A DNA stretch of 32,000 nucleotides. Origin: Desulfotalea psychrophila LSv54. GTDB taxonomy: Bacteria; Desulfobacterota; Desulfobulbia; Desulfobulbales; Desulfocapsaceae. The position numbers and the translations under genes are program-made. Shown here in pieces: positions 7,442-24,774 of this stretch. The stretch's first letter is position 1; each line of letters opens with the position of its first letter. Where the stretch lies: assembly GCF_000025945.1 (NCBI RefSeq), contig NC_006138.1, forward strand, positions 1,620,001 through 1,652,000. Direction: 5' to 3'. Under the pieces are notes generated by a model. It searched no databases. It had not been told where the DNA came from and was given only the letters and a program-made list of their open reading frames with translations.

Positions 7442-7444
7442 GAG

Positions 7445-8005: not shown

Positions 8006-8008
8006 TCT

Positions 8009-8698
8009 ATGCTAAGCAATAAAAGAGGATTGACCCTGGTCGAATTGATGGTGGTGCTGGTACTTTCCATGATTGTCACTGGCCTAATGTACAGCCTCTA
8101 CAGGGTACAGACAGTCTCTGCCGAGGTGCAGACCAATATTGCTGAAATGCAGCAGGCGCTTCGTACCTCCGTTGACAGCCTAAGCCGTGAACTGCGGATG
8201 GTTGGCTATGATCCAACTGCTCAAGGTGGCTTTGGTGTAAAGGCCGTTTCCGAGGTGAATGGCGTGTCACTAGGGACTGGAAATTACATAGATAAGGCTG
8301 CAATGGATAAGGCGAAGAGGACAGATACTCTTCGTTTTCTCACTTATAGCTACGCTGATAGCCTTGGCAATGACAGGATTGAGCTTTATGACAAAGATGA
8401 TGGAGTATTTAAACTACATCTCATCGATGCTGGTGCAGCCGTCATTGAAGAGGTGGAGTATTTAGAGTTGTACTACCGTCTTGCCGATGGAACTAAAACC
8501 CTGACACCTACGAATTTAGCTCATATCCGTGCTGTGGAGGTCTCCCTGCTTGTTCGCTCCTCTCGACAATCGTCAGACTATATCAATACTACTGAGTATA
8601 TAACGGCATCCGGTGAAGAATGGAAACCTTCTGGCGACGACCGCTATCGACGTAGATTTGTACGAAAAATAATAAAGTTGCGCAATATGGGCCTCTAG
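8009..8698 (+). CDS. pilW: PilW-like minor pilin
   Basis: NKRG|LTLVELMVVLVLS, then a long helix ending in LSRELRMVGYDP, the PilW-type signature. Confidence 0.7.
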   Translation: MLSNKRGLTLVELMVVLVLSMIVTGLMYSLYRVQTVSAEVQTNIAEMQQALRTSVDSLSRELRMVGYDPTAQGGFGVKAVSEVNGVSLGTGNYIDKAAMDKAKRTDTLRFLTYSYADSLGNDRIELYDKDDGVFKLHLIDAGAAVIEEVEYLELYYRLADGTKTLTPTNLAHIRAVEVSLLVRSSRQSSDYINTTEYITASGEEWKPSGDDRYRRRFVRKIIKLRNMGL

Positions 8699-8706
8699 GA
8701 GGGAAT

Positions 8707-9174
8707 ATGAGATTATTAAATGAGCAGTCTGGCTTTACCCTCATTGAGGTCCTGATGGCGATTCTGATACTCTCCGTTGGCCTTATCTCTTTGAACTTTA
8801 TGCAGGTGAGTTCCGTCAAGGGCAATGCCGATGCCATTGGCCTCTCTACCATGTCCTGGCTTGCCTCCAGTGAGATTGAAGGGCTGATGGATGAGGGCTA
8901 TACTGCCGTGGTTGCTTTGGATAAGGGAGGGGCGGGGGCCGGTGCTGCTGGTCTGGATGATGGTCCTTCTTTAGTCGATTCAGATGTCTCTGCAGCGACT
9001 GCGGATAGGACGGATACTAAAACTCATTCTGGTTACAGCATTTATACGAATGTTGCCGATAATTCCCCGGTCAATGGGGCGGTGGCCATTCGGGTGATTG
9101 TGGTTCGTGCCCGTGATAATAAGTTCGTAAAGTATGATTCCTTTATGACTGATTTTGTCAAAGGAGGGCAGTGA
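8707..9174 (+). CDS. pilV: PilV-like minor pilin
   Basis: NEQSG|FTLIEVLMAILILSVGLISL, the PilV-type N-terminus. Its TGA stop overlaps the next start (GTGA). Confidence 0.7.
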   Translation: MRLLNEQSGFTLIEVLMAILILSVGLISLNFMQVSSVKGNADAIGLSTMSWLASSEIEGLMDEGYTAVVALDKGGAGAGAAGLDDGPSLVDSDVSAATADRTDTKTHSGYSIYTNVADNSPVNGAVAIRVIVVRARDNKFVKYDSFMTDFVKGGQ

Positions 9175-9662
9175 AACCTTTAGCGAAAAAGAGAGAGGAA
9201 GGCTTTGTTTTGGTCCTTGGCCTGATCCTGATGTTGGTCCTTACCTTGGTCGGTACCCTGGCTACCAGAACGGCTGTTATGGAACTGCAAATTGCTGGAA
9301 ATGAACGTCAGGCAAGTCAGGAGTTCTACGTTGCAGACAGTGTTTGGCAGCTTGGTGGTCTGTGGTTAGGCAAGAGATCAACCCCCCCTGATTGGGTCAA
9401 TGTGTCTACTCCATTGAGTAATATTGTCAGAAATTATGGTGACGGTGGTGATGGTGTATCACACGAAGATTTTACTGATGCCAGTAAAGACGGTAGTTCT
9501 TTAGAGATTCCGTATTGGTATAGAATTAAAGATACTGGAAGTACTAAGGTCGCGGGATACGGTAAGGGATACAAGAGATTTCATTATGAGATAGATGCTG
9601 TAGCAGGTGGGCGAGCTCATGTTAGCACTCGAGTAAATAAGGTCTATAAGGTTGACTATTAA
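9171..9662 (+). CDS. pilX: PilX-like minor pilin (PilX_N-type N-terminus)
   Basis: EEGFVLVLGLILMLVLTLVGTLATRTAVMELQIAGNERQASQEFYVADS resembles the PilX N-terminal domain. Its position between pilV and pilY1 fits. Confidence 0.65.
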   Translation: MKPLAKKREEGFVLVLGLILMLVLTLVGTLATRTAVMELQIAGNERQASQEFYVADSVWQLGGLWLGKRSTPPDWVNVSTPLSNIVRNYGDGGDGVSHEDFTDASKDGSSLEIPYWYRIKDTGSTKVAGYGKGYKRFHYEIDAVAGGRAHVSTRVNKVYKVDY

Positions 9663-9684
9663 GTAATTGTTTTTAGCGGTGGAT

Positions 9685-11193
9685 ATGGAAAATAATACAG
9701 TTAGGCTTTTCCCGTGGATGATTATTTTGCTTTTAGTTGGAATGCTATTCCATGTTGATTCGGTGGTGCAGGCCGCCTGTGTGATTGATCCCACAGGAAC
9801 TTATATTGAGGCGGAAAATTATACGGGTGAAGGTGGGCATAGTGATGATCACGATGAAAATTTTTCCTTAAAGAGTGATGGTAGTGCCCATGGTGGCCTC
9901 GCCCTGGTTGCTGGTAGTGATGATTCAACTCGAACGCCACCACGGCGGGAAATAAAAGAGTATGAGGTGGAGATCTCAACTGCTGGTACCTACTACTTCT
10001 GGATGAGAGGGGAGGGGTACAGTGGCTCAAGAGATTCTATGTTTTATACCGTTGATGATTCATCGTGGAGGGCCTGGAATTTTGCTGGACACTATTATAG
10101 GTATGTATGGACAAGGTCTATGCAGGTTGGCTCCAACGGAATCTATCTCAGTGCTGGCAGCCATACAATTAAAATAGCAATGCGAGAACATTATACCCGT
10201 ATAGATGGTTTTTTCTTAAGTACGAATCGCTATACGTCCCCAAGTTTTGCCAACATTTTGGATCCGACCAGCTGTCAGGATAGCGGGGGCACACTTCCTC
10301 CTGCCGATGGCACCTGTGGTGATGTGCCCATTTATACGCAGAATCTCTTGAGTCCTGCCATCATGGTCCAGCTTGATCTTTCCGGGAGTATGGACAGTTC
10401 AATGTTCTCGGGTTCTAAGTTTTTGAGTTCTGATTTGGCGCCCATTGTCCAGGAGATTGTTGATTTAACAGGCTGGGTATCCGGCCATAATATTGCCTTT
10501 AGGGTGAGGGGAACCGGTGACCGACAGGCCTACTCTTATAGGGGCAGTTCAGTTGGTGCTCCCGTTCTTACCATTAAATATATCCCCATTGGTGGCGTCG
10601 ATGAGGTAACTTTTACGAAAAAGATATTAGCAGATGCAGACGATAATCAGGTCTATAATGGTTCATTTGTCAATAATTATTATGGCCTATATTTTGGTGC
10701 AAAGGGTCCCGTAGGTCTTCTCTTTAAAAATATTAACATCCCTTCCGGTGCAGAAATCACCAGTGCCGAGATCCTCTTTACGTACAGAGGTTCCGACGAT
10801 ATAAGTCGAGTTGCCACCCTCGATATTGAAGGCTTTAAAGAGCCAAATGTATCATCGATTACAGAGACGATGCTTGAATCTGATACTGGCCTTACCCTGG
10901 CAAATGCATCCCTGAATTATACCCGGCTTGATTATGCCGTTGCCGTTTTGGCAGAGGTCTTTAAGGATGACGCAATTGCCTGGGGCTTTGCAACCTGGGC
11001 AGGTGGTAATGGGAGCTCTTCTGATACTGGTAGTCCCGACTACTACAGCAAATATAAGGTGGGGGTAAAGGCACATTCAGAGGTGCATCAGGGACATTTA
11101 GAGACGGCATTGGCCAGTACAGATGCCTATGGATGGACTCCGCTCACTCCAAGCATGAATGCTGCTATGATTACTTTACAGCAAGGCGCTTAG
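9685..11193 (+). CDS. pilY1: PilY1-like tip adhesin, N-terminal fragment (signal peptide, carbohydrate-binding-like module, first half of the vWA domain); fragment 1 of 2, ends at a frameshift
   Basis: MENNTVRLFPWMIILLLVGMLFHVDSVVQA is a signal peptide. A module runs from IEAENY to REHYTRIDGFFLS. The vWA MIDAS loop is MVQLDLSGSM, and the ORF ends inside the vWA motif GWTPLTPSMNAA. Confidence 0.75.
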   Translation: MENNTVRLFPWMIILLLVGMLFHVDSVVQAACVIDPTGTYIEAENYTGEGGHSDDHDENFSLKSDGSAHGGLALVAGSDDSTRTPPRREIKEYEVEISTAGTYYFWMRGEGYSGSRDSMFYTVDDSSWRAWNFAGHYYRYVWTRSMQVGSNGIYLSAGSHTIKIAMREHYTRIDGFFLSTNRYTSPSFANILDPTSCQDSGGTLPPADGTCGDVPIYTQNLLSPAIMVQLDLSGSMDSSMFSGSKFLSSDLAPIVQEIVDLTGWVSGHNIAFRVRGTGDRQAYSYRGSSVGAPVLTIKYIPIGGVDEVTFTKKILADADDNQVYNGSFVNNYYGLYFGAKGPVGLLFKNINIPSGAEITSAEILFTYRGSDDISRVATLDIEGFKEPNVSSITETMLESDTGLTLANASLNYTRLDYAVAVLAEVFKDDAIAWGFATWAGGNGSSSDTGSPDYYSKYKVGVKAHSEVHQGHLETALASTDAYGWTPLTPSMNAAMITLQQGA

Positions 11194-13382
11194 ATGAGAC
11201 CTACAGTTTGAAATATGCTCAGGTGTCCTGTCAGGCGAAGGTTCTTGTTATTGTTACCGATGGCATAGGTAATACAGGTACTACGACTACTAATGCAGGG
11301 ACTGCTACTGATAGATTGATAAATGCAGGTGTTTCTGTTGTTGCCCTTGGCTTTGGTTTAGATAATGCGACGCAACTTGATAAAATAGCGGAAATAGCTC
11401 AACGCGCCGGGAAAATTTCAGATACAGATAAGCTCTATGCCCTCCATGATGATGCGGGCGGGAAGGGCGTACCATTTCTGGCCGATTCCCCCGATGAATT
11501 TTTAGCAGCGATGAAATCCATTATCAGCAGTGTCAAATTGCAGTTGTATAATGGTGTCTCTCCGGCCCCAACCACCTCGGTTAAAGATGAACAAATTTTA
11601 GTGACTGCCACATTTAACCCAGCAAAGTGGACGGGAGATGTTGTGGCCAATAAATTTGACGGAGAAACGGGGAAGCTGGGAGAGATATTGTGGAGGGCAA
11701 GTGATGTTTATGCCTCTGCGGGGAGCCCGGATTTCGCTGATTGCTTTGTTTATGAGAAGGCGACAACCAGTGTGGTGAATTATGGTACTACAACTCTGGA
11801 TAAAGATAATTATCTCTGCAAAAATTTGGGAGATATTATTAATTCAACACCCAAGATTGTAGGAGCTCCTCCCTATTATTATGATTTTGATGACTATGAA
11901 GATTTTAACCGCAATACATCCGTTACTGGCCGAGATACCCTTGTTTATGTGAATTCAAATGACGGAGCCCTGCACTCTTTTTTACTTGCTCCGGGAACGA
12001 GCCGTGCCAGTACAGATACAACGCCTCTGGGGAAAGAGCTATGGCGATTTTATCCAGATAGTGTAAGGGAAAAACTTAATACAGATATGTGTTCTGCTGC
12101 ATACTGTCATGAGTATATCAATGATGGCCCTCCCCGAGTTGGAGATATTTATAAGGCAGATTTGTCAGGCAGTAAATGGCGGACTGTGCTGGCGGCTGGT
12201 ATTGGCAGAGGTGGCGCTGGCTTCTATTCTTTAGATGTTACATATGGAAAAGGTCTCGGTGGAGGAGTAAATGATACCTCTTTCCTGTGGGAGTTTACCA
12301 GTGTCGATGATAGTGAACTGGGGTTGGCTACAGCTTTGCCTGAGATTGAGAGAGTTGCTGATGATGCAGTTGCTAACAAAGCTTCGTGGCTGACATTTTT
12401 TGGCTCCGGCCGAGCTGTTAAGGCAGATGAACAGGCCAGTAAGCAGGCGTATCTGTTTGCTGTTAATTCGTGGACAGGGGCTTCTGTGTGGGGCGGCGAT
12501 AATAATACGAATAAGATCAAAATTGGTACAGCAGACCCGGCTGATGATAGTCAGTTGCTTAAAAACGATATTCCCTCTTCTCCTTTGGTTGTTGATGTCG
12601 ATGATGATAACAAGGCTGACAGGGTATATTTGGGTAATTTATACGGTGAAATTTTTAGAATTGCAGATATTTCAGTTGGCGATTCTCCACGGGTAAGCCG
12701 CCTTTTTGAATCTGGTCATACAGATCGATTGTCACCTATTATTACAAAACCTGCCTTCGCCTTTGATTCTGATACAGGCAGCAGCCTGTGGGTGTATGCT
12801 GGTACTGGAAAGTACGAAGATCAAGCAGATAAGGTGTCTTCAGACCAACAGTATATGCTTGGTCTTCTGGATGAGGGCGCTTCTCTGAGAAAGATGAGTG
12901 AAATAACAACCTGTGATGCGGGATTTGTTACAGCTGCAGATAGTAGTGCTGAGTATAGAACAGTAGGAAATTGTGTAACTGGTGCAGGTGGTGCAGGTTC
13001 ATGGGCCTTGAAGCTTATGAATTCTGAGAGCAGTGCAAGTGAGCGTTCCTTGTCACAGCCTTTGGTGGTCGGCGGTGTTGTCTTTTTTACTACCTTTGTC
13101 CCTGATGCAGATGTCTGTGGGGGAAGCGGTGATGCATATTTATTTGCCCTTGATTGGAAGACAGGAGCTGCCCCAACGGAGCATATATTTGTAGATTTTC
13201 CACAAACTGTTGGCAGCAGTGCAGTCGCTGGTTTGTATCTTGGTAAAGGTGTTCCTTTTCAGCCTGTGCTGCATGGGGATGTGCTTTTTGCAGGAACTAC
13301 AGAGCAACCACCCACTCCTTATAAGGTTAATTTGAAAAAGTCAAAAATAGAGCTGAAGTCTTGGAGACAGGACTTTAATTAG
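11133..13382 (+). CDS. pilY1: PilY1-like tip adhesin, C-terminal fragment (rest of vWA plus the PilY1/PilC beta-propeller); fragment 2 of 2
   Basis: The vWA continues (DYFTARR, KVLVIVTDGIGNTG). PilY1 hallmarks follow: LGDIINSTPKIVGAPP, LVYVNSNDGALHSF, and the Ca-binding-type loop DVDDDNKAD (12594-12620). Confidence 0.8.
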   Translation: MDSAHSKHECCYDYFTARRLDETYSLKYAQVSCQAKVLVIVTDGIGNTGTTTTNAGTATDRLINAGVSVVALGFGLDNATQLDKIAEIAQRAGKISDTDKLYALHDDAGGKGVPFLADSPDEFLAAMKSIISSVKLQLYNGVSPAPTTSVKDEQILVTATFNPAKWTGDVVANKFDGETGKLGEILWRASDVYASAGSPDFADCFVYEKATTSVVNYGTTTLDKDNYLCKNLGDIINSTPKIVGAPPYYYDFDDYEDFNRNTSVTGRDTLVYVNSNDGALHSFLLAPGTSRASTDTTPLGKELWRFYPDSVREKLNTDMCSAAYCHEYINDGPPRVGDIYKADLSGSKWRTVLAAGIGRGGAGFYSLDVTYGKGLGGGVNDTSFLWEFTSVDDSELGLATALPEIERVADDAVANKASWLTFFGSGRAVKADEQASKQAYLFAVNSWTGASVWGGDNNTNKIKIGTADPADDSQLLKNDIPSSPLVVDVDDDNKADRVYLGNLYGEIFRIADISVGDSPRVSRLFESGHTDRLSPIITKPAFAFDSDTGSSLWVYAGTGKYEDQADKVSSDQQYMLGLLDEGASLRKMSEITTCDAGFVTAADSSAEYRTVGNCVTGAGGAGSWALKLMNSESSASERSLSQPLVVGGVVFFTTFVPDADVCGGSGDAYLFALDWKTGAAPTEHIFVDFPQTVGSSAVAGLYLGKGVPFQPVLHGDVLFAGTTEQPPTPYKVNLKKSKIELKSWRQDFN

Positions 13383-13427
13383 AATAAAAACTATTGGTTA
13401 ACCAGTTGTCTACAGGGTAGGTGTAGT

Positions 13428-13889
13428 ATGAAAATGCTAAGGGTATTGTTTTTAGGGTTTGTTTGTTATTCTTTTACCTTACAAACTGGATTTGCTCAAA
13501 ATACAAAGCAGGAGATGGTCGATCTTCTTGTCGATAGCTCCGGAGGAGAACAAAGGGAAATGGTTGGCTTGGTATCTGAGTATACCCCCGGAGGTTCGCT
13601 TATATTGGTGGCAGATCAGCTTCTCAGTGTGCCCTCTGTAATATTTCGTAAAAATTTGGCAGGACAGTATTTAGAGGAGCCAATAAAAAATCTTGCTGTT
13701 GGCCAAGGTGTGCAGGCTATTGTCAGTAAAAAAGTTACTGAAGGTGTTCAGGAAACTGTTGTGCTGGCAATAGTTGAAGATATTGCTCAATCGGAAGGGC
13801 CTGCAGAACCTGCTGATGTTCTTGATAACAAAAAGGGGAAGCGTGTAGAAAGGCTCAGGTTGGAAAATGGTGTTTGGCTGAATGAGTAG
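13428..13889 (+). CDS. hypothetical secreted protein, last gene of the plus-strand operon
   Basis: 153-aa ORF with a signal peptide (MKMLRVLFLGFVCYSFTLQTGFAQ). I recognise no family. Confidence 0.55.
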   Translation: MKMLRVLFLGFVCYSFTLQTGFAQNTKQEMVDLLVDSSGGEQREMVGLVSEYTPGGSLILVADQLLSVPSVIFRKNLAGQYLEEPIKNLAVGQGVQAIVSKKVTEGVQETVVLAIVEDIAQSEGPAEPADVLDNKKGKRVERLRLENGVWLNE

Positions 13890-13890
13890 A

Positions 13891-13919
13891 GGAGATGGAA
13901 AGAATTTCTCCTATTTTTT
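13891..13919 (+). terminator. weak candidate intrinsic terminator
   Basis: GGAGA-11 nt-TCTCC followed by tatttttta, directly after the stop at 13889. Confidence 0.3.
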
Positions 13920-14064
13920 AGCTCCCCGTACAGTACGCTTGTCTGGTTTTTTTTTGTGCTTTTGTTGAGGCAATAGGGTCGCGTGATTTGCCAAGGGGAA
14001 AGCCATGTATCCCTATCGCCTGAGATGGATAATTATCTGAATCCCTGCTGGCATGGCCGTTAGG

Positions 14065-14523
14065 CTATTTACAGTCTACCCCCCGGCTGGGGGTGCTGCT
14101 CTTGCAGCCTGTACCGGTGAGGGACCACTCTGTGTAGCCCTTGCTGGTGGTCGGGGTATAGATGAAGTTTAGTTGAGTGCCGGCTGTGTCGGTGACGGTG
14201 GTGGTGATTGAGATAACGCCCTTAACTGTTGCGAGTTTATCCACATACGAGACCGTTGCCCCATCATCCCCTGTGGCAATATCTGCCGGAATAAGGGGGA
14301 CTGTGGCATTGTCGCAGTTGGTTGGCGCTCCCCTGTCCTGGATACACTGTTCAACGGCAACCTGCCAGGATGTGATATTGGATAAAACCCCGCCCAACTT
14401 GCTTCTTGCCACATAGTTAGTGTACTGAGGGACGGCAACGGCCGCAAGGATACCGACGATCGCTATAACGATCATAAGCTCAATAAGGGTAAATCCCCTC
14501 TCTGCTTTAAGAGAACTTTGCAT
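14065..14523 (-). CDS. type IVa pilin (third major-pilin-like gene), last gene of the minus-strand minor-pilin operon
   Basis: [10 protein letters not shown]|[24 protein letters not shown], with a C-terminal Cys pair [14 protein letters not shown]. Only 37 nt separate it from the upstream PilX-like gene. Confidence 0.9.
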
Positions 14524-14560
14524 GGACTTCTCCTGAGTGAAATTTTTTGTCCTTTAGGTA

Positions 14561-15094
14561 TTATTCGACCCAACCGTCCGGAATGAATTCTGTTTTATAA
14601 ATTATATCAATAATGGCCTGCTCGGGAGCCTTGGTTGAGAGTGATTGTTCATTTTCTGCGTAGACAGTAATTGCCTGCAGGCTGGTGACTTTTTCTAGCT
14701 GGGTGCCTGCCTGGGGGCCGGTATCAGGAATTTGGAACGCTGAAAGATTATTTGCGCCTCTATAGTAGGCATAAAGGCTTGTGCAATCGGCCTTTCCCAG
14801 GGCGGTGCAGAGGCCTAGGGGGATGTCTATTTTGGATGCCGTCGGGGTGCTGGGGCTTGTTGAACAGGTCATTCCCCCATTGCAGGTGAGGCTGTCGTCG
14901 CCCATTTTGGCCATCAAAAAATTGCCGGTTCCCCGGGCTATTTGCAGCTCTTGGTTATAGGAGTTCATCTGGTGGGTGCTTACCGTGGAACTTTTTATTA
15001 TGTGCCACATCACCGCCACCAGCATAATCCCGATTAGCCCCAGGGAAAGGGCTGTCACAAGTACCGTGCCTCTTTGGTTATTGACTGTTTTCAT
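14561..15094 (-). CDS. pilX: PilX-like minor pilin
   Basis: MKTVNNQRGTVLVTALSLGLIGIMLVAVMWHII is a PilX_N-like hydrophobic N-terminus. ATG 15094 sits 1 nt after the upstream stop; the track start 15112 is less likely. Confidence 0.6.
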   Translation of the reverse strand: MKTVNNQRGTVLVTALSLGLIGIMLVAVMWHIIKSSTVSTHQMNSYNQELQIARGTGNFLMAKMGDDSLTCNGGMTCSTSPSTPTASKIDIPLGLCTALGKADCTSLYAYYRGANNLSAFQIPDTGPQAGTQLEKVTSLQAITVYAENEQSLSTKAPEQAIIDIIYKTEFIPDGWVE

Positions 15095-15095
15095 A

Positions 15096-16082
15096 TTAAA
15101 ACCCTTTGGCAAAGGCCGTTATCTTTAAGACCTTCCACTGGTATCTCTTGAACTCCTCTATCTCGTCGCCAGTGGTAAAAAGTGTCTGGAACTGGACGGC
15201 CTCTCCATCAATGCTAAAGCTTATCTTGCCGTCGCCTAGACTGGGGCTTGGCCCACCATAGGTGTAGGTCTCGTCTTTTTTGCCAATTTGGGCCAGGATA
15301 TAGACGGTGCTGGTCTTGAGCTTATTGCGAACTGTGAGGGTGGAGCCTGTCTCGGCAGCCGGGATATCAGTAGTCTTGCTGGGATCAAGGTTTGTTTCGT
15401 CCGCCTCAACTGTTCCGTCGTCGTCTTTATCCCAGTCAACGCGGATGGCGAAATCGGCAATGCAGGTGAAGAGAGGAGTATCGTTTCGCAGTATGTTTCT
15501 GGTATTTGCCGCACAGGAGTCTATGGGTTGGCTGGCGCTGAGCCTATACTCTGTCTGGGTGCAGGGCTGGTTGCTACTGCTGCCGCAGCTGGTGGCCCCG
15601 TTTGCATAGGGATAGACGATATATATGTTATTGCCACTGCAGCCTGTGGTGGTAATATCCTCGTTGTAGATAGAGTCTTTGTCGATAAGGATGGAGTTTT
15701 GAGAATCATTGTCTCGCTGTTCAATATCAAGGGAGAAGCTACCACTCGAACAGGAACCTGTTGCCCAACCCATGGTTGCGCTATTGGTGTTACTGAGGGT
15801 GGAGTGAATCAAAAGGCTACTGCCATCCCAGAAAACAGGGGGAATGTCATTTATGGTGGCTGTTGAGTCTATGTAGGTGGCAATGCCTGTGCCTGCATGT
15901 TCCAAATCCAGACGTAAGAGCTCATTGGCAGAGAGATTGTCTCCTCTTGTCTGGCTGGCGGCCGTGCTACTCTTGACATTATGCGATATCCGTTGAAAAC
16001 TCTTGGTGGTGAAGAGGAGGAGGAGGAGCATGATGGTCATGGCCACGAGGAACTCAATCAGGGTAAAGCCGTCTCTTTTCAT
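15096..16082 (-). CDS. pilW: PilW-like minor pilin
   Basis: MKRDG|FTLIEFLVAMTIMLL, then LSANELLRLDLEHAGTG. ATGA start/stop overlap with the upstream gene. Confidence 0.7.
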   Translation of the reverse strand: MKRDGFTLIEFLVAMTIMLLLLLFTTKSFQRISHNVKSSTAASQTRGDNLSANELLRLDLEHAGTGIATYIDSTATINDIPPVFWDGSSLLIHSTLSNTNSATMGWATGSCSSGSFSLDIEQRDNDSQNSILIDKDSIYNEDITTTGCSGNNIYIVYPYANGATSCGSSSNQPCTQTEYRLSASQPIDSCAANTRNILRNDTPLFTCIADFAIRVDWDKDDDGTVEADETNLDPSKTTDIPAAETGSTLTVRNKLKTSTVYILAQIGKKDETYTYGGPSPSLGDGKISFSIDGEAVQFQTLFTTGDEIEEFKRYQWKVLKITAFAKGF

Positions 16083-16492
16083 ATGTCAGCCCGTATGGTT
16101 GTGGTTGTGTAGGACTCCTCGGGGCCATCATCTAGCACCTTCCATTTAACGGTAATGTTTACCAGTTTACCATAGGTGCCAATACCTGCCGGCTCCGATA
16201 CCGCCTGGTCTACGTTGAATGTTTTTTGACTGTCGCCAAAGAAACGGGCCAGGCTGGTGTTGGTTGTGCCGAGATTAAGGGCGGCAAAGGCCGTGTTGCT
16301 GATATTGGCAACCTGCAGTTGGGCAATCTGCTTGGCCTCGTTTTGATACTGTTGGCGTGCAGAATGTTGAAAGGTACGAATAAGCCCTGTAAGTGTGCCA
16401 AGCGACATTATGAGGAGGAGGAGAAGGGCCACCATTACCTCAACGAGGGTAAAACCCCTCTCTCTATTCTGCTGTGCAGGATGTTCCATCAT
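16079..16492 (-). CDS. pilV: PilV-like minor pilin
   Basis: QQNRERG|FTLVEVMVALLLLLIMSLGTL; small at 137 aa. Confidence 0.7.
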   Translation of the reverse strand: MMEHPAQQNRERGFTLVEVMVALLLLLIMSLGTLTGLIRTFQHSARQQYQNEAKQIAQLQVANISNTAFAALNLGTTNTSLARFFGDSQKTFNVDQAVSEPAGIGTYGKLVNITVKWKVLDDGPEESYTTTTIRADI

Positions 16493-16985
16493 ACTTTCCC
16501 TGACGAACGCGAATGTTATTTATTGTTATGCAGTCACCAGTGGCTGCGGGGTTGGACAGTGCTGTTTCCCTATTGTCTGCCAGCAGGCGGATATGACCAT
16601 TAGCGAGGTTTCCTCGACTGGTAATTGAAAAGCTGTCGCTACCGTAGTTGCTGGCGTAGATATAGTTAAGTACCACCTCTTTTTGGGTATCCGTGCCAGT
16701 GCCTGCATCATCCCACCGGGAGACAATGGTTGTATGCTTGTCGCCGCTAGTCCCCTCTTTTAGAAGAGAGACTGTCACCTCCTGTTTGTGGGTAAAGGCC
16801 CAAACCCGGCCGGCCTTAATGAATCTCGTTATTTTGCTAAGATCGTTTTCTATATTCTTGGCCTGGGTCATCTTTTGGTAACTGGCAAGGGAGAAGGTTG
16901 CCATTATGCCCACCAGGACAATGACTATCATCAGTTCCAGCAGGGTAAAACCCCTCTCCCTGTTTCTGCTTAGCGTTCTTGCCAT
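16464..16985 (-). CDS. GspH/FimT/FimU-family minor pilin
   Basis: SRNRERG|FTLLELMIVIVLVGIMATFSL, then NDLSKITRFIKAGRVWA as in GspH/FimT. Confidence 0.7.
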   Translation of the reverse strand: MARTLSRNRERGFTLLELMIVIVLVGIMATFSLASYQKMTQAKNIENDLSKITRFIKAGRVWAFTHKQEVTVSLLKEGTSGDKHTTIVSRWDDAGTGTDTQKEVVLNYIYASNYGSDSFSITSRGNLANGHIRLLADNRETALSNPAATGDCITINNIRVRQGKYDGTSCTAE

Positions 16986-19900
16986 AAGAGGGGCTCTCCT
17001 TTGGGTGTAATCCCATTACCAGGTAAGATAAAGGGGGAATTTTCTGGTGGCGTACCCATTATCCAAGAAGTTGCCCTATTGCCATCCTGGTCGAAACTAT
17101 CCTGATTGAGTAGGTTGAGGTCGCCGGCATTCAGGGGCAGAATTATGTGGAAGATTTCCGCTGGAAGATTATAGGCCTGACCTTCTGTGTTCTCCTCGCA
17201 ACCGGTGCTGATGCTATCTCCTGTCATGCAGTTCAGGGCCCACATTCTGGTCCGTCCACCAAAGGAGCATATATCATCTGTCGGTTGGGTGGTGGTGAAA
17301 AAGGTGATATTTAAATTGCTTACTGTGGGGTCGGTGAGAACACGTTCCTTCATGTAGATGGTGTCAGGGTCGTCTGCATCGGCGCCATATTCTGCCAGAC
17401 CCTTATCCAGCCTCCATGCATAGTTGCTGTTGCGTTTGGCATCGGAGACATCACAGGTCCCACTGGTGTTGTGGATTGAGTTGATGCCGACACTTTTTAG
17501 GCAATCCTCACCCTTAGCTAGATTATCCCTACACTCTTGGAGGTTAACGCCATAGAGGTTATTGGTCTTGCCATCTGGGTCGTCCTTCTTGAAAAACCAT
17601 TTGCCCGTACCGAAATAGACAAAGGGGTCATCAAAGCAGGTGCCGAAGGCAACTGCGCTGGTAACCGGTTGGCTGGAGTTGAGGATGTTCTTTTCCGTCC
17701 ATTTTTTTACTGCCTGATCGGTGGGGGCAATAGCCCGGAGCTGGCCTTGTGCACCATTTTTTTCATTGACCCCATAAAGGATAAGGTCGGTGTAGCCATC
17801 ACTGTCGATATCCATGCCGTTGTTGTAAAGCCTGCCGCCGAAAGAATTTTTTTGCACGTTTTTGGGTGCTATTGTATTAACCGCGGTTTTTTTGAAATCA
17901 TCATCAAGGGTGAGGATGAAGACCTTTAAATTCTGCTGTACTTGGCCCTGGTAGTCTGTGGGGCCGGAGACAAAGACTACGTATTTTTGTTTGAGGCTGT
18001 TGCCAGCTTTTTGTTTTCTGCTGATAACAGCGGGGCCGGAGTAGGCAAAACCAAGATCTGGATCGGTGAATTCCCAGAGGAATTTGGGGGCATAGGGATC
18101 GGTGATATTAAGAGCAAAGTATGAGGACAGGCCTTTGCCGGCAGTTTCAGGCGAGATAGCCTTATCACCTGTAGAGCCCGTTGCCCCGCCAAAACGCATT
18201 CCCATGATAAGAATTGTCTTGTCCCCGTGCTGGACGAAGTAGGGTGCGCCGTCAATCGCATAGAGATGCTGATAGTCCGGGTCGGCAAGGTATTTCAGAT
18301 AGGGCATGCTGTTTTTGGGGATGAAAGACCAGACCTCTTTACCTACGAGGTTGTTGCCGTCGTCGCCTTTTTTATTAATAAGCGTAGCCACTTGATCACC
18401 GCTAAGGCCCCCCCTCTCTATCTTGCCCCCGTTAAAGACATGGAGCATACCGTCGTTGGCCCCGGTGAAGATCAGGGAGTTGTCCCCGTAGTTAAGAACC
18501 TTGGGGGTTGAATGGATAATATCGCCCAGCTTCCATCTGTTTTTTCCACCGGTGGTGTCAGCGTCTGTTGCCCTGGATCTGCACTCTCCTCCGCCATTGG
18601 TAGTGAAATCATCTCCTGCCCCACGGGTATAGGAGATAGTGTTTACCGCCCTCTCTGCAGCTGTTCCACCAAGGCAGGGATCAAAGCCGCTGCCTCCAAA
18701 AAGAGAGTCGAAGCTGTTGACATTATCTGTGGTGAACTCTTGTATACTGTCCGTTTCATCTACTCCCCATATGACCCGTCTCGCTGTGTCAAGACCTGGG
18801 GCTGGATCAGCGATGAGGTCAGGGGCAGACTCAACCTCTCGATCGTTTAACATTTGTCCGCCATCCCATATCTTGGCAATATCTCCGATTTTGGCATGAT
18901 CGCCTAAGCGGGCTCCCTTACTTCCATCGGCCTCTACCGCATAGTAGGGGATGGAGAGTCCCCCTGTATTGGGATTTGGCACAATTTCAATAATATGGTC
19001 TGTAAATTTATTGCGAAAAAACCTGTCCACATTGTCTTCCTGCATATAGGCAATATCGTTTTGGCTGGAGTACCAGTAGGTATGGAGTATACCTGTCCAG
19101 TTTACTTGGTACTTCTTGTTATCTTGGAACTCTTTAGTGGGGAAAAAGAGGCTCTGGTTGAGGGTACCCCCTGTAGATTTATTTCCTGAGAGAATAGATA
19201 CGCCTGTGCCCGATGCGGTCTTGTCGAGGATGCTGTTGATGGTTCCCTTCAGAACATCTTTGAGCTGTTGCCCATCCTCTGCTAGAGAATAGGTCCCTTG
19301 GCCATGGGCGGCGGTATCCTGGAGGAGTCTCTCTTCGGCGGAGTTTGCAGAAATTCCGAAGCCCACGGTATAGGTGGTAAGATACTGCTCTCCCTTAAGA
19401 TCATCGCGGAGATCCCGACTGTTAGAGAGTGCTTCAGTCAGGGCCTGCCCCTTTCTGTTAAGGTTGGCCCAGAGGGCCAGATCATCGAGGTTATTTTTGT
19501 AACTATTATCGGTGTTCCTCGTATTAATGCCCTCGCCTGTTACGATGTTCCCATCGTAGTCGTTTGTGTAGTTGCTTCCGTCACTATATGCTGAAGCCGC
19601 CTGGGAGGCGCTTGATTCGTTAAATTCCTCGTCATTAAAAGGTGGCACGTAGCTATCGGTATATGAACCCCCATCGGTGAAGATAATAACAGATGAGTTA
19701 GCGCAACGTATCATGGCGTCCAGTTCTTTGAAATAGTAGGGGTCCCAGGCTTTTTCTGTTAAAAAGCTTGCCACGTCTCCTGCGCTGTTGACGCTGGAGT
19801 TGTAATAGGGGCCTTTTTGCTGGAAATAACGAATGACCTCATAGAAATTTTCAGCAAGGGGGGTTGTTCCCCAGATCAGTGGATAGTGTTCGACTGCATC

Positions 19901-21730
19901 CACCAGAATTTCTATGTCTGAATCTATGGGGGTATCGATTGTGCGAAAGTTGGTGTCTGAACTTTTTTTGACAAAGGGGTTGGTCGGGATGCGCAGGCGC
20001 ATGGTTCCACCGTGCCACCATGAATTGTATATATTGTTGGTGGTGAGATTGTACTTGTAGTAACTGAGGCCCTGACGGACATCATCCTTTATATCGTGAA
20101 GGAGTCCTTTGGGTACCTGATCTGTCAATAGGGCAATATTATAGTTTGTTCTTGGGGAGAGGGCGAGGTAGCCGACAGCCTCTGTTGTATGGCGAACCTC
20201 CGTATCATTTGAACCCTCTTCCTGCAGGGAGATTTGCACTGAATCCTGCTCTAAATTACTAAAGGCTACGGCCACTGTATCGGGCCCGTTAAAGGTTAAG
20301 GCTGTGGCTAGAAAGGCACTGGTGGCTTTGCTCGTGGCAAAAGTTATAGAGGCGCTGTTGGAAAGACTCTGGGTGCCCACTTCTAGAACTGTATCCGTGA
20401 AGTTATATTGTCCTTTCTCCAGGGCCACATAGTCCACTGTTTCGGTTGCATGAGTTCGGCGGCTCGCCTTCCATTCTAATTCTTCCTCCTGCAAAATGAT
20501 ATCAAAGTCGGCTGTTGATATATCGTTAAGGCGGGTGGTGACGGTTTGATGGTCTGTGTCTGAGGTGATTGCGGTGATTACTACGGGAGTCGAAGAAAAA
20601 TCACCTGAAGCCAGAGACACATTTTTCCACGCGGAGCGACTGTTTACATAGCTTGTGTTGATTTTTGTGCTTCCTGCCATAATTTTTCCCCCGCCAAGCA
20701 GGGTGTGCGTCCCTGCCTCGATGACCAGGTAGGAGGCATTTCGTTGAGGCAGGGTTCCGTTGAGATACTCCCACTGCTCTGCCCGTATTTTAAAAGAAGA
20801 ATTTTTGATCTCCTTTATTCTGATTACCGCAGGGCGATTAGCGGTTGAATCGAGGGGGCCGGCAACAATAACGGGATTGCTATAATTTTTGCTCAGGGTG
20901 ATTTTTTTCCATGTCTCATCAAGGTCCTCAATGGAGCTAAATTCACCAATGATATCACCAATGTTATCGGTGATGGTCTTGGAGTATTTTGTGCTTATTC
21001 CCGTTGCCGTCATCTTTGCATAGGGGTCGTAGGTAGTTTTACTTGAACCGCCATAGGCAGGGCTGTTGACTCTTATGGGGCTTCCCGCAGAAAGTGGGCT
21101 GTAGTCAATTGAATTTGCTGGGGCATTTCGGCAAATTTCTCTGTCAATTGGCTCATTGTTTCCCACAATTTTCCAGTATAGGGTTGAATTGCCTGTTATG
21201 TTTAGATATGGGTAGCTGCTTCTGCTCTCTGTCTTGCCTCCAACGAGAACCTTTCTGGCTGCATCCATACGTCTGGTGACGATCCAGTTGAGAAAGTTCC
21301 CGCTCCAGCAGTTTTTGTCTGTTTGAGAGGAACATGTGCTTGGTACAAAGGCTCCCGTGGCTGATAGGGCAACGGCTACATCGTAGGGAGTGCCATTAAA
21401 TCCATCTGGGTTTATGCTAACCTTGGGGTCGTAATTGTAATTTGCCGTACTTTCAAAAATACCGTAATACTCTTTTGTACTGTCATAGTCTGACGGGAAT
21501 GATTTGCAGTTCCAGCCACTCTGGCTATACATTGGTTGCTTCATGCTCCCTGAATTATCGAGCATGAATAGGATGTTAGGCTTGACTTTGTTGGCTATGG
21601 ATGGTGGGTATGCTGTATAGGCGGCTCCCTCGCATGTACCTGCACTTGCCACTAAGGGCCCTGTGAGAATAAGGAGAGGTAGGAGGAGAAAAAGCGGGAG
21701 ATTTATTTTGTTATTCGGGATCTGTTTCAT
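16970..21730 (-). CDS. pilY1: very large PilY1-like tip adhesin with an N-terminal vWA domain carrying a ~450-aa insert
   Basis: Signal peptide from ATG 21730 (MKQIPNNKINLPLFLLLPLLILTGPLVASA). vWA elements are the MIDAS loop LFMLDNSGSM, TTPLAENFYEVIRYF and VIIFTDGGS. PilY1 hallmarks are LGDIIHSTPKVL and FTGANDGMLHVFNG. The Ca-type loop is DIDSDGYTD (17786-17812). The track start 21892 adds 54 residues that precede the signal peptide and are probably not coding. Confidence 0.85.
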   Translation of the reverse strand: MKQIPNNKINLPLFLLLPLLILTGPLVASAGTCEGAAYTAYPPSIANKVKPNILFMLDNSGSMKQPMYSQSGWNCKSFPSDYDSTKEYYGIFESTANYNYDPKVSINPDGFNGTPYDVAVALSATGAFVPSTCSSQTDKNCWSGNFLNWIVTRRMDAARKVLVGGKTESRSSYPYLNITGNSTLYWKIVGNNEPIDREICRNAPANSIDYSPLSAGSPIRVNSPAYGGSSKTTYDPYAKMTATGISTKYSKTITDNIGDIIGEFSSIEDLDETWKKITLSKNYSNPVIVAGPLDSTANRPAVIRIKEIKNSSFKIRAEQWEYLNGTLPQRNASYLVIEAGTHTLLGGGKIMAGSTKINTSYVNSRSAWKNVSLASGDFSSTPVVITAITSDTDHQTVTTRLNDISTADFDIILQEEELEWKASRRTHATETVDYVALEKGQYNFTDTVLEVGTQSLSNSASITFATSKATSAFLATALTFNGPDTVAVAFSNLEQDSVQISLQEEGSNDTEVRHTTEAVGYLALSPRTNYNIALLTDQVPKGLLHDIKDDVRQGLSYYKYNLTTNNIYNSWWHGGTMRLRIPTNPFVKKSSDTNFRTIDTPIDSDIEILVDAVEHYPLIWGTTPLAENFYEVIRYFQQKGPYYNSSVNSAGDVASFLTEKAWDPYYFKELDAMIRCANSSVIIFTDGGSYTDSYVPPFNDEEFNESSASQAASAYSDGSNYTNDYDGNIVTGEGINTRNTDNSYKNNLDDLALWANLNRKGQALTEALSNSRDLRDDLKGEQYLTTYTVGFGISANSAEERLLQDTAAHGQGTYSLAEDGQQLKDVLKGTINSILDKTASGTGVSILSGNKSTGGTLNQSLFFPTKEFQDNKKYQVNWTGILHTYWYSSQNDIAYMQEDNVDRFFRNKFTDHIIEIVPNPNTGGLSIPYYAVEADGSKGARLGDHAKIGDIAKIWDGGQMLNDREVESAPDLIADPAPGLDTARRVIWGVDETDSIQEFTTDNVNSFDSLFGGSGFDPCLGGTAAERAVNTISYTRGAGDDFTTNGGGECRSRATDADTTGGKNRWKLGDIIHSTPKVLNYGDNSLIFTGANDGMLHVFNGGKIERGGLSGDQVATLINKKGDDGNNLVGKEVWSFIPKNSMPYLKYLADPDYQHLYAIDGAPYFVQHGDKTILIMGMRFGGATGSTGDKAISPETAGKGLSSYFALNITDPYAPKFLWEFTDPDLGFAYSGPAVISRKQKAGNSLKQKYVVFVSGPTDYQGQVQQNLKVFILTLDDDFKKTAVNTIAPKNVQKNSFGGRLYNNGMDIDSDGYTDLILYGVNEKNGAQGQLRAIAPTDQAVKKWTEKNILNSSQPVTSAVAFGTCFDDPFVYFGTGKWFFKKDDPDGKTNNLYGVNLQECRDNLAKGEDCLKSVGINSIHNTSGTCDVSDAKRNSNYAWRLDKGLAEYGADADDPDTIYMKERVLTDPTVSNLNITFFTTTQPTDDICSFGGRTRMWALNCMTGDSISTGCEENTEGQAYNLPAEIFHIILPLNAGDLNLLNQDSFDQDGNRATSWIMGTPPENSPFILPGNGITPKGEPLLWQER

Positions 21731-21989
21731 GTCTGTGCTCTTCTCCTGTTTTAACCGCAACAATGTCCTGTGCTGTTCAATTCGTCCATCAAGGGCCGAG
21801 AGTACCTTGCCTTTCTGGTACGCCGTTGTTTCTGGTAGGCGAAAATTAAATCCATGGTAAGTGCGCCTACCAGTATCCTTAATTGTAGCCAAAGTTTATC
21901 GGAGAGTACAATTTTTTATGCATCTGTGGCAGGAAGCTTTTGTGAGAGGTAGGTATGATCTGCTGCGTGTGGGGACTGTGGTGGTTGGG

Positions 21990-22323: not shown

Positions 22324-24774
22324 GTGGCAAAATATTCAATTGTTGGAATGCACTGTGCTGCCTGTTCGTCCCGTATTGAGAGGGCGTTAGCAAAAGTTGA
22401 GGGCGTTTGTCGAGCAGAGGTGAATCTTGCCGATGAATCCGTGGAGCTGGAGTTTGATGAGCGTATCTCTATAAAGGATATTGGTGACCGGCTTAAGGGT
22501 CTTGGCTTTGAGCTTGTTATTCCCTCGTCTGTGGTGGGCAAGGACTATCAGTTTAGAATAACAGGGATGCACTGTGCCGCCTGTTCGTCTCGAATAGAGC
22601 GAGTTCTGGCCCAGACCCCGGGGGTGTTGGCCGTTGAGGTCAATCTGCCCGCCGAAACAGCCCATATTCAGGCGACCACCTCTGTGCGCAGGATAAAGGC
22701 CGCTGTTGCCAAACTCGGTTTTGGGGCAGAGCTTGTCAGTGATTTGGTGGCAGAGGATCAGCTCCGGCAGGAGAGAGGGCGAAAGGCCTTGGCAGATCAA
22801 AAGCACTCTCTGCTTTTGATGATTTTCTTTGCCCTCCCCCTCCTCTATGTCACCATGGGTGAGATGATTGGTCTGCCCCTGCCGCTAGCCCTTGCTCCGG
22901 AACACTCACCTGCCATCTATGCCTCTTTGCAGTTCTTCCTGGCTTTGCCCATTGTCTATCTGGGTCGCAGGTTTTACCTGCGGGGAATTCCCGCTCTCCT
23001 TCGGGGTGGGCCCAATATGGACTCTCTTATTGCCATTGGTACCGGGGCTGCCTTTATCTACTCCTGTGCAAATCTGCTGGGTATTCTGTTGGGTCAGGAT
23101 GCCCAGGTGCGGGTGATGGATCTTTACTTTGAGTCCGGTGCTGTCCTTCTTACCCTTGTCTCTTTAGGAAAATTTTTGGAGGCGGGGGCAAAGTATAAGA
23201 CAGGTGGGGCCATCAACGCCCTGATAAAGCTTACCCCGAAAACGGCAAGGCTTATCGATAGCGATGGCAGTCATCAGGAAATTGCTCTGGAAGAGATAGA
23301 GGTGGGAGACCTTCTTTTGGTCCGGCCCGGCGAGCGTCTGCCCGTTGACGGCAGGGTGGTCTCGGGGGCAGGCAGTGTTGATGAATCCATGCTGACTGGC
23401 GAGAGTATGTCCGTTACCAAGAGGGAGGGCGATCCTGTTTTTGGTGGGACTCTTAATGCCACCGGCGCCCTGCAGATAGAGACGGAGCAGACAGGTGCAG
23501 GCACGGTACTTGCCGGAATTATAGCGATGGTGCAGCGTGCCCAGGGGTCAAAACCTCCCATTGCCGCCCTTGCCGATAAGATCAGTCTCTACTTTGTCCC
23601 GGCAGTTCTTGTTATTGCCTTTATTACTGCTGGCCTGTGGTTTTTTGTCGGAGCCGTTCCCCTGCACGAGGCCCTGCGTTATTTTATTGCCGTGCTTGTT
23701 ATTGCCTGTCCCTGTGCCATGGGTCTTGCCACTCCCACCTCTATTATGGTGGGTACAGGTCGTGGGGCCCAACTCGGTGTACTTATTCGAAACGGTGAGG
23801 CCCTGCAGCGGGCAGAAAAAGTTGATCTTGTCGCCTTTGATAAGACAGGGACCATAACCTATGGCAGGCAGAGGTTGGTCAAAATTATTAATCGCAGTTC
23901 AATGCCTGAACAGGAGATCCTCTCTCTGGCGGCCTCCATAGAGAAAAATTCAGAGCATTCACTGGCTCAGGCCATTGTTCTGGCGGCAGAGGAGGCCTCG
24001 GCGCCCCTTCTGCCCGTGCAGGATTTTCAGGCCGTTGTCGGGCATGGGGTAGAGGCTAGGGCGGGGGGATTATCTCTTCGCTTTGGTAATATTCAGTATA
24101 TGGAGGGAAGCGGGGTTACTGGTCTGCCTGAGGCCGAGGAGATGAATCGCTTTGCCTGTCTTGGTCAGACCGTTCTTTATTTCGCCATTGATGAAAGCCT
24201 GGCGGCCCTGTTTATTGTCGAGGATTCCCTGAGGGAGGAGGTTCCTGCCTTAATCAAGGACCTTACGAGGATGAAGGTCCTTTCGGTGATGCTCACCGGT
24301 GACCAGAAAATTACCGCTAAGGCCATTGCTGTACAGGCAGGAATTGGCAAGGTCGTGGCAGAGATTCTCCCCGATGAAAAGGCCGTGAGGGTGGAGCGCC
24401 TGCGCAAAAATGGTCACTGTGTAGCCATGGTGGGCGATGGCATAAACGATGCACCGGCCCTTGCCTCAGCAGATGTTGGTGTTGTTATGGGGGCCGGTAC
24501 CGACGTGGCCATAGAGGCGGCTGATATTGTTCTTATGGGTAATAGGATTGAACATATTGTCACAGCCATTGGTCTTTCCCGGGCGGTGATGCGAAATATA
24601 CGGCAAAATTTATTTTGGGCATTTATTTTTAATATAATAGGCATTCCCGTGGCGGCAGGTATTCTGGTTCCCTTTGGTGGACCGAGTCTGAATCCTATGC
24701 TTGCAGGTACTGCCATGGCCTTGAGCTCCGTTACCGTGGTTTCTAATGCCCTGCGTTTGCGTCGATATAAATAA
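22324..24774 (+). CDS. copA: copper-translocating P1B-type ATPase
   Basis: Two N-terminal HMA domains (GMHCAAC twice), plus TGES, the CPC motif ([11 protein letters not shown]), DKTGT and [11 protein letters not shown] start after the RBS gaaagggg. Confidence 0.95.

Follow-up and report, generated by a model that had tools for sequence, protein, structure and literature searches.

The window analysed here, a 32,000-nucleotide (nt) stretch of the genome of Desulfotalea psychrophila LSv54 (contig NC_006138.1, positions 1,620,001 to 1,652,000), encodes on its minus strand DP1469, a PilY1-type protein of 1586 amino acids (aa) whose N-terminal vWA region holds a nested cassette of three tandem domains modelled with the H-type lectin fold. 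The interpretation that we favour, and consider reasonably probable, is that this cassette is a single-chain pseudo-trimeric H-type lectin acting as an extra ligand-binding head on the tip of a type IV pilus, its ligand probably being a glycan. The cassette, its repeats and the two arms of the host beta-hairpin that frame it map as follows.

20144-21010, minus strand: triple H-type-lectin cassette, a discrete insert of ~289 aa (aa 241-529), delimited by BLASTP breaks and alignment borders
20714-21010, minus strand: lectin repeat 1 (aa 241-339; lead hairpin and Unit 1 core), from a hidden Markov model (HMM) of the unit, the structural model and hhalign
20414-20713, minus strand: lectin repeat 2 (aa 340-439; Unit 2), from the HMM, hhalign and a sub-threshold Pfam match
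20144-20413, minus strand: lectin repeat 3 (aa 440-529; Unit 3), from the HMM and hhalign
21011-21025, minus strand: left arm of the host beta-hairpin, PYAKM (aa 236-240), from the alignment and modelled strand E212-215
20126-20143, minus strand: right arm of the host beta-hairpin, YNIALL (aa 530-535), from the alignment and modelled strands E502-504 and E506-509

The borders of the cassette emerge from comparison with close relatives devoid of the repeats, which align in BLASTP to aa 5-244 of DP1469 and resume at aa 528-530. The cassette-less proteins P0011, P0028 and P0052 read YDPYAKL, a turn of 6-11 aa and FNIAL where DP1469 reads YDPYAKM, aa 241-529 and YNIALL, and both arms of the hairpin are modelled as beta strands. 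In P0028 the hairpin has the sequence PYAKL-SGGGSD-FNLAL. As judged from this alignment, the cassette takes the place of a single beta-hairpin turn, which belongs to a beta-rich accessory region within the vWA domain at the N-terminus. The original prediction for this locus had described an insert of about 450 residues grafted within the vWA region. The grafting is borne out by the alignment with cassette-less relatives and the gap between the vWA motifs is real; the discrete insert, on the other hand, comprises only the ~289 residues of aa 241-529. The wider, 450-aa borders were rejected since the flanks (aa 176-240 and 530-619) occur also in relatives without repeats, the remaining ~165 aa being common to the whole subfamily as a beta-rich elaboration that extends from the first vWA helix to the strand RQGLSYYKY.

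The three tandem units that had been aligned by eye inside this insert are real, with cores at aa 274-340, 368-440 and 460-525 (Units 1, 2 and 3, respectively). When single sequences were compared against 1000 shuffles, the pairs formed by Units 1 and 2 (z = 10.4) and Units 2 and 3 (z = 4.9) scored above every shuffle; the pair formed by Units 1 and 3 did not rise above the shuffles (z = 0.2), so that on single sequence these two units are related by transitivity only. An HMM of the unit trained on homologues recognized exactly three units in DP1469, at aa 274-341, 368-441 and 460-528 (E values of 2e-18, 2e-22 and 2e-20), and comparison of the three sub-alignments by hhalign related all pairs with a probability of 99.4-99.7% (E values of 3.6e-25, 2.7e-23 and 1.3e-21). 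No further copy of the unit was found elsewhere in the window when its six frames were searched. In an AlphaFold2 (AF2) model, the structural repeat amounts to ~95 aa and consists of a beta-hairpin lead followed by the ~70-aa core that had been noticed by eye. At the DNA level, no tandem repeat was found in the cassette region beyond a trivial 12-nt, 2.2-copy repeat, and the GC content is flat across the cassette, both of which argue for an ancient triplication; the same grounds led us to reject the idea that this stretch was duplicated, or patched in horizontally, in recent times.

The only Pfam family to touch the insert is H_lectin (PF09458), which matches repeat 2 alone with an E value of 5e-4 and a score of 20.6 bits against a cut-off of 24 bits. 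H_lectin is also matched by 16 of the 46 family units taken from homologues (best E value, 1.3e-7), one family unit matches Gp53-like_C, and the curated H_lectin gathering score was passed by all ten cassette proteins sampled; the Methylomarinovum PilY1 homologue P0027 reaches 48.7 bits. The AF2 model of the cassette (aa 236-535; 300 aa, built from 38 cassette sequences) is all-beta, with a pLDDT of 90.8 and a pTM of 0.90. Among the structures of the PDB matched by a single repeat in Foldseek searches are those of the Helix pomatia agglutinin HPA (2ccv; probability 0.98-0.99, TM score 0.56, root mean square deviation (rmsd) 3.7-3.8 over 100 columns, 19% identity), the coral lectin SLL-2 (3wmp; TM score 0.58-0.60) and two receptor-binding domains, of the R2 pyocin fibre (6cl6; probability 1.00) and of the tail fibre gp53 of phage AP22 (4mtm; probability 0.99). 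As modelled, each repeat is a ~95-aa domain of the H-type lectin fold, and the earlier guess at a lectin-type beta sandwich was therefore correct, Pfam and Foldseek together specifying which type. A literature search for the sugar-binding residues of HPA returned nothing usable.

Given the pTM of 0.90 obtained for the three-domain chain, the mutual placement of the domains is fixed in the model. The three domains are predicted to pack as one compact body, which is probably a closed pseudo-trimeric ring; the fact that the cassette stands in for a hairpin turn means that its ends should be adjacent, as a closed ring provides. Only one solved single chain, the C-terminal domain of PCSK9, aligns with the whole cassette in Foldseek (279 columns, probability 0.94-0.96, ~7% identity), with a TMq of 0.30-0.35 versus 0.21 for one-domain matches. 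This domain of PCSK9 comprises three beta-sandwich subdomains with pseudo-threefold symmetry; it is eukaryotic, disulfide-rich and not a lectin, and its likeness to the cassette is architectural only. A search of the literature for a link between PCSK9 and the Helix pomatia lectin found nothing. Within BFVD, the model of one viral protein aligns with the three-domain model in its entirety (E value of 1.9e-12, TMq 0.77, rmsd 2.9 over 280 columns), suggesting at the level of models that viruses also carry the single-chain triplet. The entry concerned, UPI001E6AE1CA_1, is a 784-residue protein, and many phage tail fibres in the same database match single domains.

In all proteins collected, truncated ends excepted, units occur only in multiples of three: three per cassette-bearing PilY1, six in a subtilisin-family protein, nine in P0053, and, in a PKD protein, four sets of three together with a truncated one. 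The best cross-protein match of a unit falls at the same triplet position for 173 of 174 units, and all 33 units from proteins other than PilY1 retain their position when compared with PilY1 units. This positional orthology argues that the triplication is older than the spread of the cassette and that the three positions are now distinct. Across the sequences compared, the triplet is obligatory and moves as one unit.

The distribution of the cassette was examined in a species-level survey (one genome per species). It confirmed at least 486 relatives of the N-terminal region, of which the 80 best loci were retained; a qualifying open reading frame (ORF) was extracted at 79 of them. Units were present in 22 of these 79 closest species-level relatives and numbered exactly three in 20. 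Wherever both flanks could be mapped, the insert measures 278-309 aa and occupies the same site; this site was mappable at 18 unit-less loci, where it spans no more than 44 residues in 17 and 110 in the remaining one. Carriers, identified by annotation, include Desulfobacterota (Desulfocapsa, Geopsychrobacteraceae, Desulfobacterales), Gammaproteobacteria (Methylococcaceae, Arenicellales, Chromatiales, Cellvibrionaceae, Amphritea, Oleiphilus), Aquificota and Nitrospirota, and units are missing from Geobacter, Citrifermentans, Syntrophobacter and most Nitrospira-type relatives in the survey. With cassette-less proteins found among close relatives and units missing from most Geobacter- and Nitrospira-type ones, the module is not a general feature of PilY1 vWA domains; among close PilY1 relatives, as far as their sequences tell, the cassette is optional. 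In a neighbour-joining tree of the flanks, computed without support values, three cassette-less proteins fall inside cassette-bearing groups, one of them beside DP1469, which is suggestive of repeated loss or gain of the cassette.

A search with the whole-cassette profile of 1.84 billion representatives of clusters formed at 50% identity returned at least 8,290 clusters at E <= 1e-3, including 4,170 at E <= 1e-30. The best stretches of the top 150 cluster matches are mostly near the full length of the profile, and many proteins have several whole cassettes; partner domains in cassette proteins include FN3, PKD, bacterial TSP3, InlB B-repeats, Hint and subtilisin. Given that 22 of 79 relatives have units, at one and the same site and in four phyla, and that the triplet recurs in thousands of clusters, the architecture is less unusual than the original prediction supposed. 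One further form of the same idea is the modular minor (pseudo)pilin P0078 (locus L001, 3071-4438), a 455-aa protein with a pilin-like hydrophobic N-terminus and a C-terminal triple lectin cassette, whose gene comes third, after two N_methyl pilin genes.

Each repeat of the family is characterized by a near-invariant Arg, an acidic cluster (QEEE or EEW) and a His-x-x-Glu motif. The Arg, His and Glu residues are 87-99% conserved per position and are all kept in the three repeats of 303 of 399 cassettes. The corresponding pattern in DP1469 is R-L-R in repeat 1, where R304 is retained and the family His and Glu are replaced by L327 and R330; R-H-E in repeat 2, which retains R400, H427 and E430; and A-H-E in repeat 3, where A489 replaces the Arg and H514 and E517 are retained. 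Among the 399 modules, loss of the Arg of repeat 3 co-occurs with loss of the His/Glu pair of repeat 1 (odds ratio 23, p = 2e-12), loss of the Arg of repeat 2 with that of the His/Glu pair of repeat 3 (odds ratio 33), and loss of the Arg of repeat 1 with that of the His/Glu pair of repeat 2 (odds ratio 5.7); in a joint logistic model, the Arg of repeat 3 depends mainly on the His/Glu pair of repeat 1. Such a pattern would be expected if each site were made of the Arg of one repeat and the His/Glu pair of the next round a closed ring, and the co-loss is thus suggestive of putative sites located between repeats. Read in this manner, DP1469 may have lost one of its three putative sites cleanly, leaving it degenerate, and kept the other two.

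PilY1 proteins of other species have been modelled and shown as tip proteins of type IVa pili whose N-terminal region is outermost (PMC13190605), and by analogy DP1469 would occupy the same position with its own N-terminal region outermost. The cassette, which leaves and re-enters the host hairpin a few residues apart, would then be displayed beside the metal-dependent site of the vWA domain. Its three domains of H-type lectin fold would fold together into a pre-assembled single-chain lectin trimer, in which ligand pockets lined by the Arg, the acidic cluster and the His-x-x-Glu motif may lie at the interfaces between repeats, as they do in H-type lectin trimers. The cassette may in this way add to, or alter, the binding properties of the tip, the ligand most likely being a carbohydrate found on a surface, in an exopolysaccharide or on another cell. 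That the cassette is optional, that it recurs on surface proteins and a protease, and that its fold relatives are receptor-binding tips all argue for a role in accessory specificity rather than in pilus assembly.

A number of observations weigh against a glycan-binding head. The units of DP1469 itself fall short of the Pfam H_lectin threshold (20.6 versus 24 bits); a search of the PDB with the repeats as single sequences gave no matches; and the unit profile retrieved HPA and HAA from the PDB at E values of ~1 only, a result that fits the fold assignment and is no evidence on its own. Two of the three repeats of DP1469 have lost conserved residues, which could reflect relaxed selection. The co-loss signal has two confounders, shared ancestry and general degeneration, the latter showing in the association between loss of the Arg of repeat 2 and loss of the His/Glu pair of repeat 1 (odds ratio 20). 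Finally, the H-lectin trimer found on another pilus, that of CofB, binds a peptide rather than N-acetylgalactosamine (GalNAc) (PMC6048534).

This last observation underlies the best of the alternatives, one that we nonetheless hold to be unlikely, in which the cassette is a CofB/TcpB-like docking platform whose inter-domain grooves bind the N-terminal peptide of a secreted protein, this protein being displayed at the pilus tip or exported, with no sugar binding involved. CofB sets a precedent in that its tip lectin trimer accommodates the CofJ peptide at the predicted sugar site (PMC6048534); moreover, the conserved Arg, acidic cluster and His-x-x-Glu motif are not obviously a GalNAc-binding set, and the HMM alignment to HPA is weak. 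The occurrence of the cassette in thousands of non-pilus proteins with PKD, FN3, TSP3 or protease domains nevertheless makes a dedicated peptide partner unlikely, and no candidate partner gene was identified, nor any detectable sequence relation to CofB.

Slightly less probable still is a mainly structural or mechanical element, that is, a rigid spacer or shield that alters how far the vWA domain reaches, how stable it is or how it responds to force, without binding any ligand. Close relatives do manage without the cassette, three of the nine conserved Arg, His and Glu residues are lost in DP1469, and the vWA domain of PilY1 is discussed as a mechanosensor in two reports (PMC9210963, PMC8806160). 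Against this stands the conservation of the Arg, His and Glu residues in very different host proteins, with all nine present in about three quarters of the modules, which argues for a function of the module itself, as well as the fact that members of this fold family bind ligands in lectins, pyocin fibres and phage tail fibres. The least probable of the alternatives, which we regard as quite improbable, is that the units are not true H-type lectins and derive from a phage tail-fibre knob (gp53-like, or the R-pyocin foot) or represent a convergent beta sandwich: the Foldseek local probabilities for 4mtm (0.99) and 6cl6 (1.00) do equal or exceed that for HPA, tail-fibre matches in BFVD are many, one unit matches Gp53-like_C and the E value to HPA by sequence is only ~1, yet sequence recovers Pfam H_lectin in 16 of 46 units and, above threshold, in 10 of 10 sampled proteins, the GC content is flat, the cassette is old and widespread in cellular proteins, and the pyocin receptor-binding domain is itself called a lectin fold in the title of PMC6363177, which reduces the distinction to one of naming within a fold class.

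Returning to the cassette as a lectin head, its closest known relatives are the H-type lectins (PF09458), among which HPA, Helix aspersa agglutinin, the C-terminal domains of discoidin I and II and SLL-2 display the same small beta sandwich (Foldseek probability 0.85-0.98; TM score 0.56-0.58 normalised to the lectin) and with which the cassette family shares sequence family membership. The functional unit of these lectins is a threefold assembly with sugar sites at protomer interfaces (PMC6048534). The cassette differs in that a single chain contains all three protomers, each position having evolved into a type of its own, and in its conserved set of Arg, acidic cluster and His-x-x-Glu, the identity to HPA being ~19%. 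A broader proposal, to which we lend only tentative credence, is that the cassette defines a large bacterial class (at least 8,290 clusters) of single-chain pseudo-trimeric H-type lectins whose site, unlike the GalNAc pocket, would accept another class of ligand, for instance a partner peptide or polymers that are cationic or contain amino sugars. Nested in PilY1, the cassette would then equip type IVa pili with the threefold H-lectin tip that three CofB chains form on type IVb pili, the two kinds of pilus having converged on one design along separate routes.

The second point of comparison is CofB, from the type IVb pilus CFA/III of enterotoxigenic Escherichia coli, in which three chains gather three H-lectin domains at the tip for attachment and the tip site binds the N-terminal peptide of secreted CofJ (PMC6048534). 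CofB and its type IVb minor-pilin relatives thus present a threefold body of H-lectin fold at the distal end of the pilus, as DP1469 presumably does. CofB, however, is a pilin that forms a trimer of three chains, whereas DP1469 is a non-pilin PilY1 of type IVa with three domains in one chain, nested in a vWA region. Classification of DP1469 as a minor pilin of the CofB/TcpB type was rejected, as it has neither a class III signal nor a pilin domain and is a single chain, leaving a functional analogy only; PDB sequence and profile searches detected no sequence similarity of DP1469 or its cassette to CofB.

With known PilY1/PilC adhesins, DP1469 shares transitive propeller homology, minor-pilin neighbours and an N-terminal vWA domain with its metal-ion-dependent adhesion site (MIDAS). 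A vWA domain is present in the PilY1 proteins of P. aeruginosa and L. pneumophila, and DUF4114 in PilY1.1 and PilY1.2 of M. xanthus; variable N-terminal domains of PilY1, sugar-binding modules included, are an accepted theme (PMC13190605). DP1469 departs from these proteins in having its module inside the vWA region instead of in tandem with it. In two reports on the modular pilins of Streptococcus sanguinis, PilB has a vWA module and PilC a lectin module (PMC8179133, PMC9934059), so that there too adhesive vWA and lectin modules are grafted on pilus components; these are separate Gram-positive proteins, pilins with C-terminal modules, whereas DP1469 combines both modules in one PilY1, one of them nested. 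PilB of S. sanguinis is in fact a weak Foldseek match to the N-terminal model of DP1469. The fibres of R-pyocins and phage tails, with their gp53-like C-terminal domain, carry this fold too, at the receptor-binding tip of a trimeric fibre, but are homotrimers with one domain per chain and are not pilus parts.

A literature search found no paper combining the terms 'H-type lectin' and 'PilY1', and a 2026 survey of myxobacterial PilY1 proteins describes vWFA and DUF4114 N-terminal domains without using the word "lectin" (PMC13190605). The literature citing PF09458 or H_lectin is, by title and abstract, mainly concerned with invertebrate, algal and plant lectins; PF09458 is already annotated in databases on many of these PilY1 homologues, and no description of the triple cassette as a module was found in the literature searched. 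What is new, then, is a PilY1 whose vWA region holds a nested single-chain triple H-lectin head. The component families are all known, and for that reason this is no new kind of system.

The ligands of type IVa pilus tips are little known outside a few pathogens, and the variable N-terminal region of PilY1 is thought to set specificity. In this respect, aa 241-529 constitute a cleanly bounded, optional module, predicted from the model to fold independently, of which natural pairs with and without the cassette exist. The cassette is common in environmental bacteria, is found in at least one virus, and may provide a stable single-chain scaffold for lectin engineering. A common H-lectin threefold tip design would also link type IVa and type IVb pili.

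The elements of the vWA domain itself are located as follows.

21545-21559, minus strand: MIDAS DxSxS motif, DNSGS (aa 58-62), after the first vWA beta strand
21236-21301, minus strand: conserved helical segment GNFLNWIVTRRMDAARKVLVGG (aa 144-165), from model helices and alignment
19850-19873, minus strand: MIDAS threonine loop, WGTTPLAE (aa 620-627), from alignment and model
19664-19690, minus strand: vWA beta strand with the MIDAS Asp, VIIFTDGGS (aa 681-689), strand E652-658 in the model

In the alignment of 31 relatives, the D, S, G, S and M of the MIDAS motif are invariant (LFMLDNSGSM, aa 54-63, nt 21542-21571), as are the W, G, T, T, P and E of WGTTPLAE; the W, G, L, N and W of the GNFLNWIVTRRMDAARKVLVGG segment, in which GNFLNW begins at aa 144, and the D and G of VIIFTDGGS are likewise invariant. 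The N-terminal AF2 model (843 residues, pTM 0.77) places strand E25-30 before the MIDAS motif, helices H117-124 and H127-136 in the GNFLNWIVTRRMDAARKVLVGG segment and helix H598-610 after the threonine loop, and strands and helices alternate in its vWA region. The DxSxS...T...D order of the metal site is intact (DNSGS, aa 58-62; TT, aa 622-623; D, aa 686) and invariant in the 31 relatives. Matches to vWA folds are only moderate in Foldseek, with BatB best (3ibs; probability 0.80, TM score 0.51) and the vWF domain of Mfa5 at 0.41, and the Pfam VWA model is unmatched by DP1469. The vWA motifs and the three units all lie where the original prediction had placed them. Between the strand of the MIDAS Asp and the next helix is an Asp/Asn/Ser-rich loop (19502-19636, minus strand; aa 699-743) modelled with a pLDDT under 50, whose family-conserved DYDG(D/N) motif could be a calcium-binding loop. 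In the more distant PilY1 relatives P0057-P0059, which have Big_5 (PF13205) or other immunoglobulin-like domains, the distance from the N-terminus to the MIDAS motif is ~330 residues greater, which suggests that these proteins decorate the same vWA domain in a second way, by extending the N-terminus instead of nesting a cassette.

The gene encoding DP1469 and its immediate surroundings comprise three features.

16970-21730, minus strand: pilY1-type gene (1586 aa), from the ORF list, with its stop codon at 16970-16972
17219-18529, minus strand: C-terminal PilY1 beta-propeller region (aa ~1068-1504), from BLASTP to P0027
14065-16985, minus strand: downstream run of ORFs, from Pfam N_methyl and Pilin matches

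The protein is a 100% database match to DP1469 of D. psychrophila LSv54 (177439.DP1469; COG3419; K02674, PilY1). The ORF extends over 16970-21892 on the minus strand, from an upstream TTG at 21892; the ATG at 21730 is the more likely start, given the AGGAG found 12 nt upstream and the signal-peptide-like N-terminus that follows. DP1469 itself does not match PF05567, the PilY1 beta-propeller family, in hmmscan. Its residues ~1068-1504 align with residues 965-1418 of P0027 (BLASTP E value of 2e-24), a stretch that includes the match of P0027 to Pfam T4P_PilY1 (PF05567; residues 965-1308, E value of 3e-67). This places DP1469 in the PilY1 propeller family by transitive homology; PF05567 is precomputed on many full-length homologues of DP1469. 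NCBIfam scans of the protein and of its insert returned noise only, and a PDB sequence search with the full-length protein retrieved designed propeller proteins only. No N_methyl or pilin match was found in Pfam at the N-terminus, which consists of an ordinary signal peptide followed by the vWA domain.

Directly downstream of pilY1 is a run of same-strand ORFs, four of which have a prepilin N-methylation motif (16464-16985, 16079-16492, 15096-16082 and 14065-14523). The last of these four matches Pilin besides N_methyl; a 183-aa ORF located between them (14561-15112) has no Pfam match. According to the Pfam matches of the neighbouring ORFs, the pilY1 gene is embedded in a minor-pilin cluster of the fimU-pilVWX type. 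Propeller homology, pilin neighbours and an intact metal-site motif together uphold the initial assignment of the host as a PilY1-like pilus-tip adhesin with a vWA/MIDAS domain.

A second PilY1 gene (9667-13382, plus strand) follows a minor-pilin set of its own (7031-9662; N_methyl, GspH, PilW and PilX_N matches) and is split into two ORFs, 9667-11193 and 11133-13382, that overlap by 61 nt. The MIDAS DLSGS and a GWTPL loop are found in the first ORF, and a VIVTDG strand and the PilY1 propeller in the second; this division of motifs between overlapping ORFs indicates that its vWA domain is interrupted by a frameshift, which could be due to a pseudogene, a sequencing error or recoding. The N-terminus of this second PilY1 (YIEAENYTGEGG...GTYYFWMRG...) resembles a carbohydrate-binding module, without a Pfam match. 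The region 7031-21730 contains two complete and convergent minor-pilin/PilY1 sets, the plus-strand one ending at 13889 and the minus-strand one at 14065, an arrangement that resembles the multiple PilY1 clusters of Myxococcus; the lectin cassette is present on the minus-strand PilY1 only.

The window also contains a major pilin gene (4720-5148, minus strand; Pilin and N_methyl matches) and, adjoining it, a gene for a PglL/Wzy_C-type O-oligosaccharyltransferase (2774-4483, minus strand; PglL_A, Wzy_C and Wzy_C_2). The proximity of the latter suggests that the major pilin may be O-glycosylated, and the presence of a lectin-bearing PilY1 at the same locus raises the idea that pilus glycans might be recognized between cells. 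Divergent from pilY1 is an ordinary and apparently unrelated gene for a copper-type P1B ATPase with two N-terminal HMA domains (22324-24774, plus strand).

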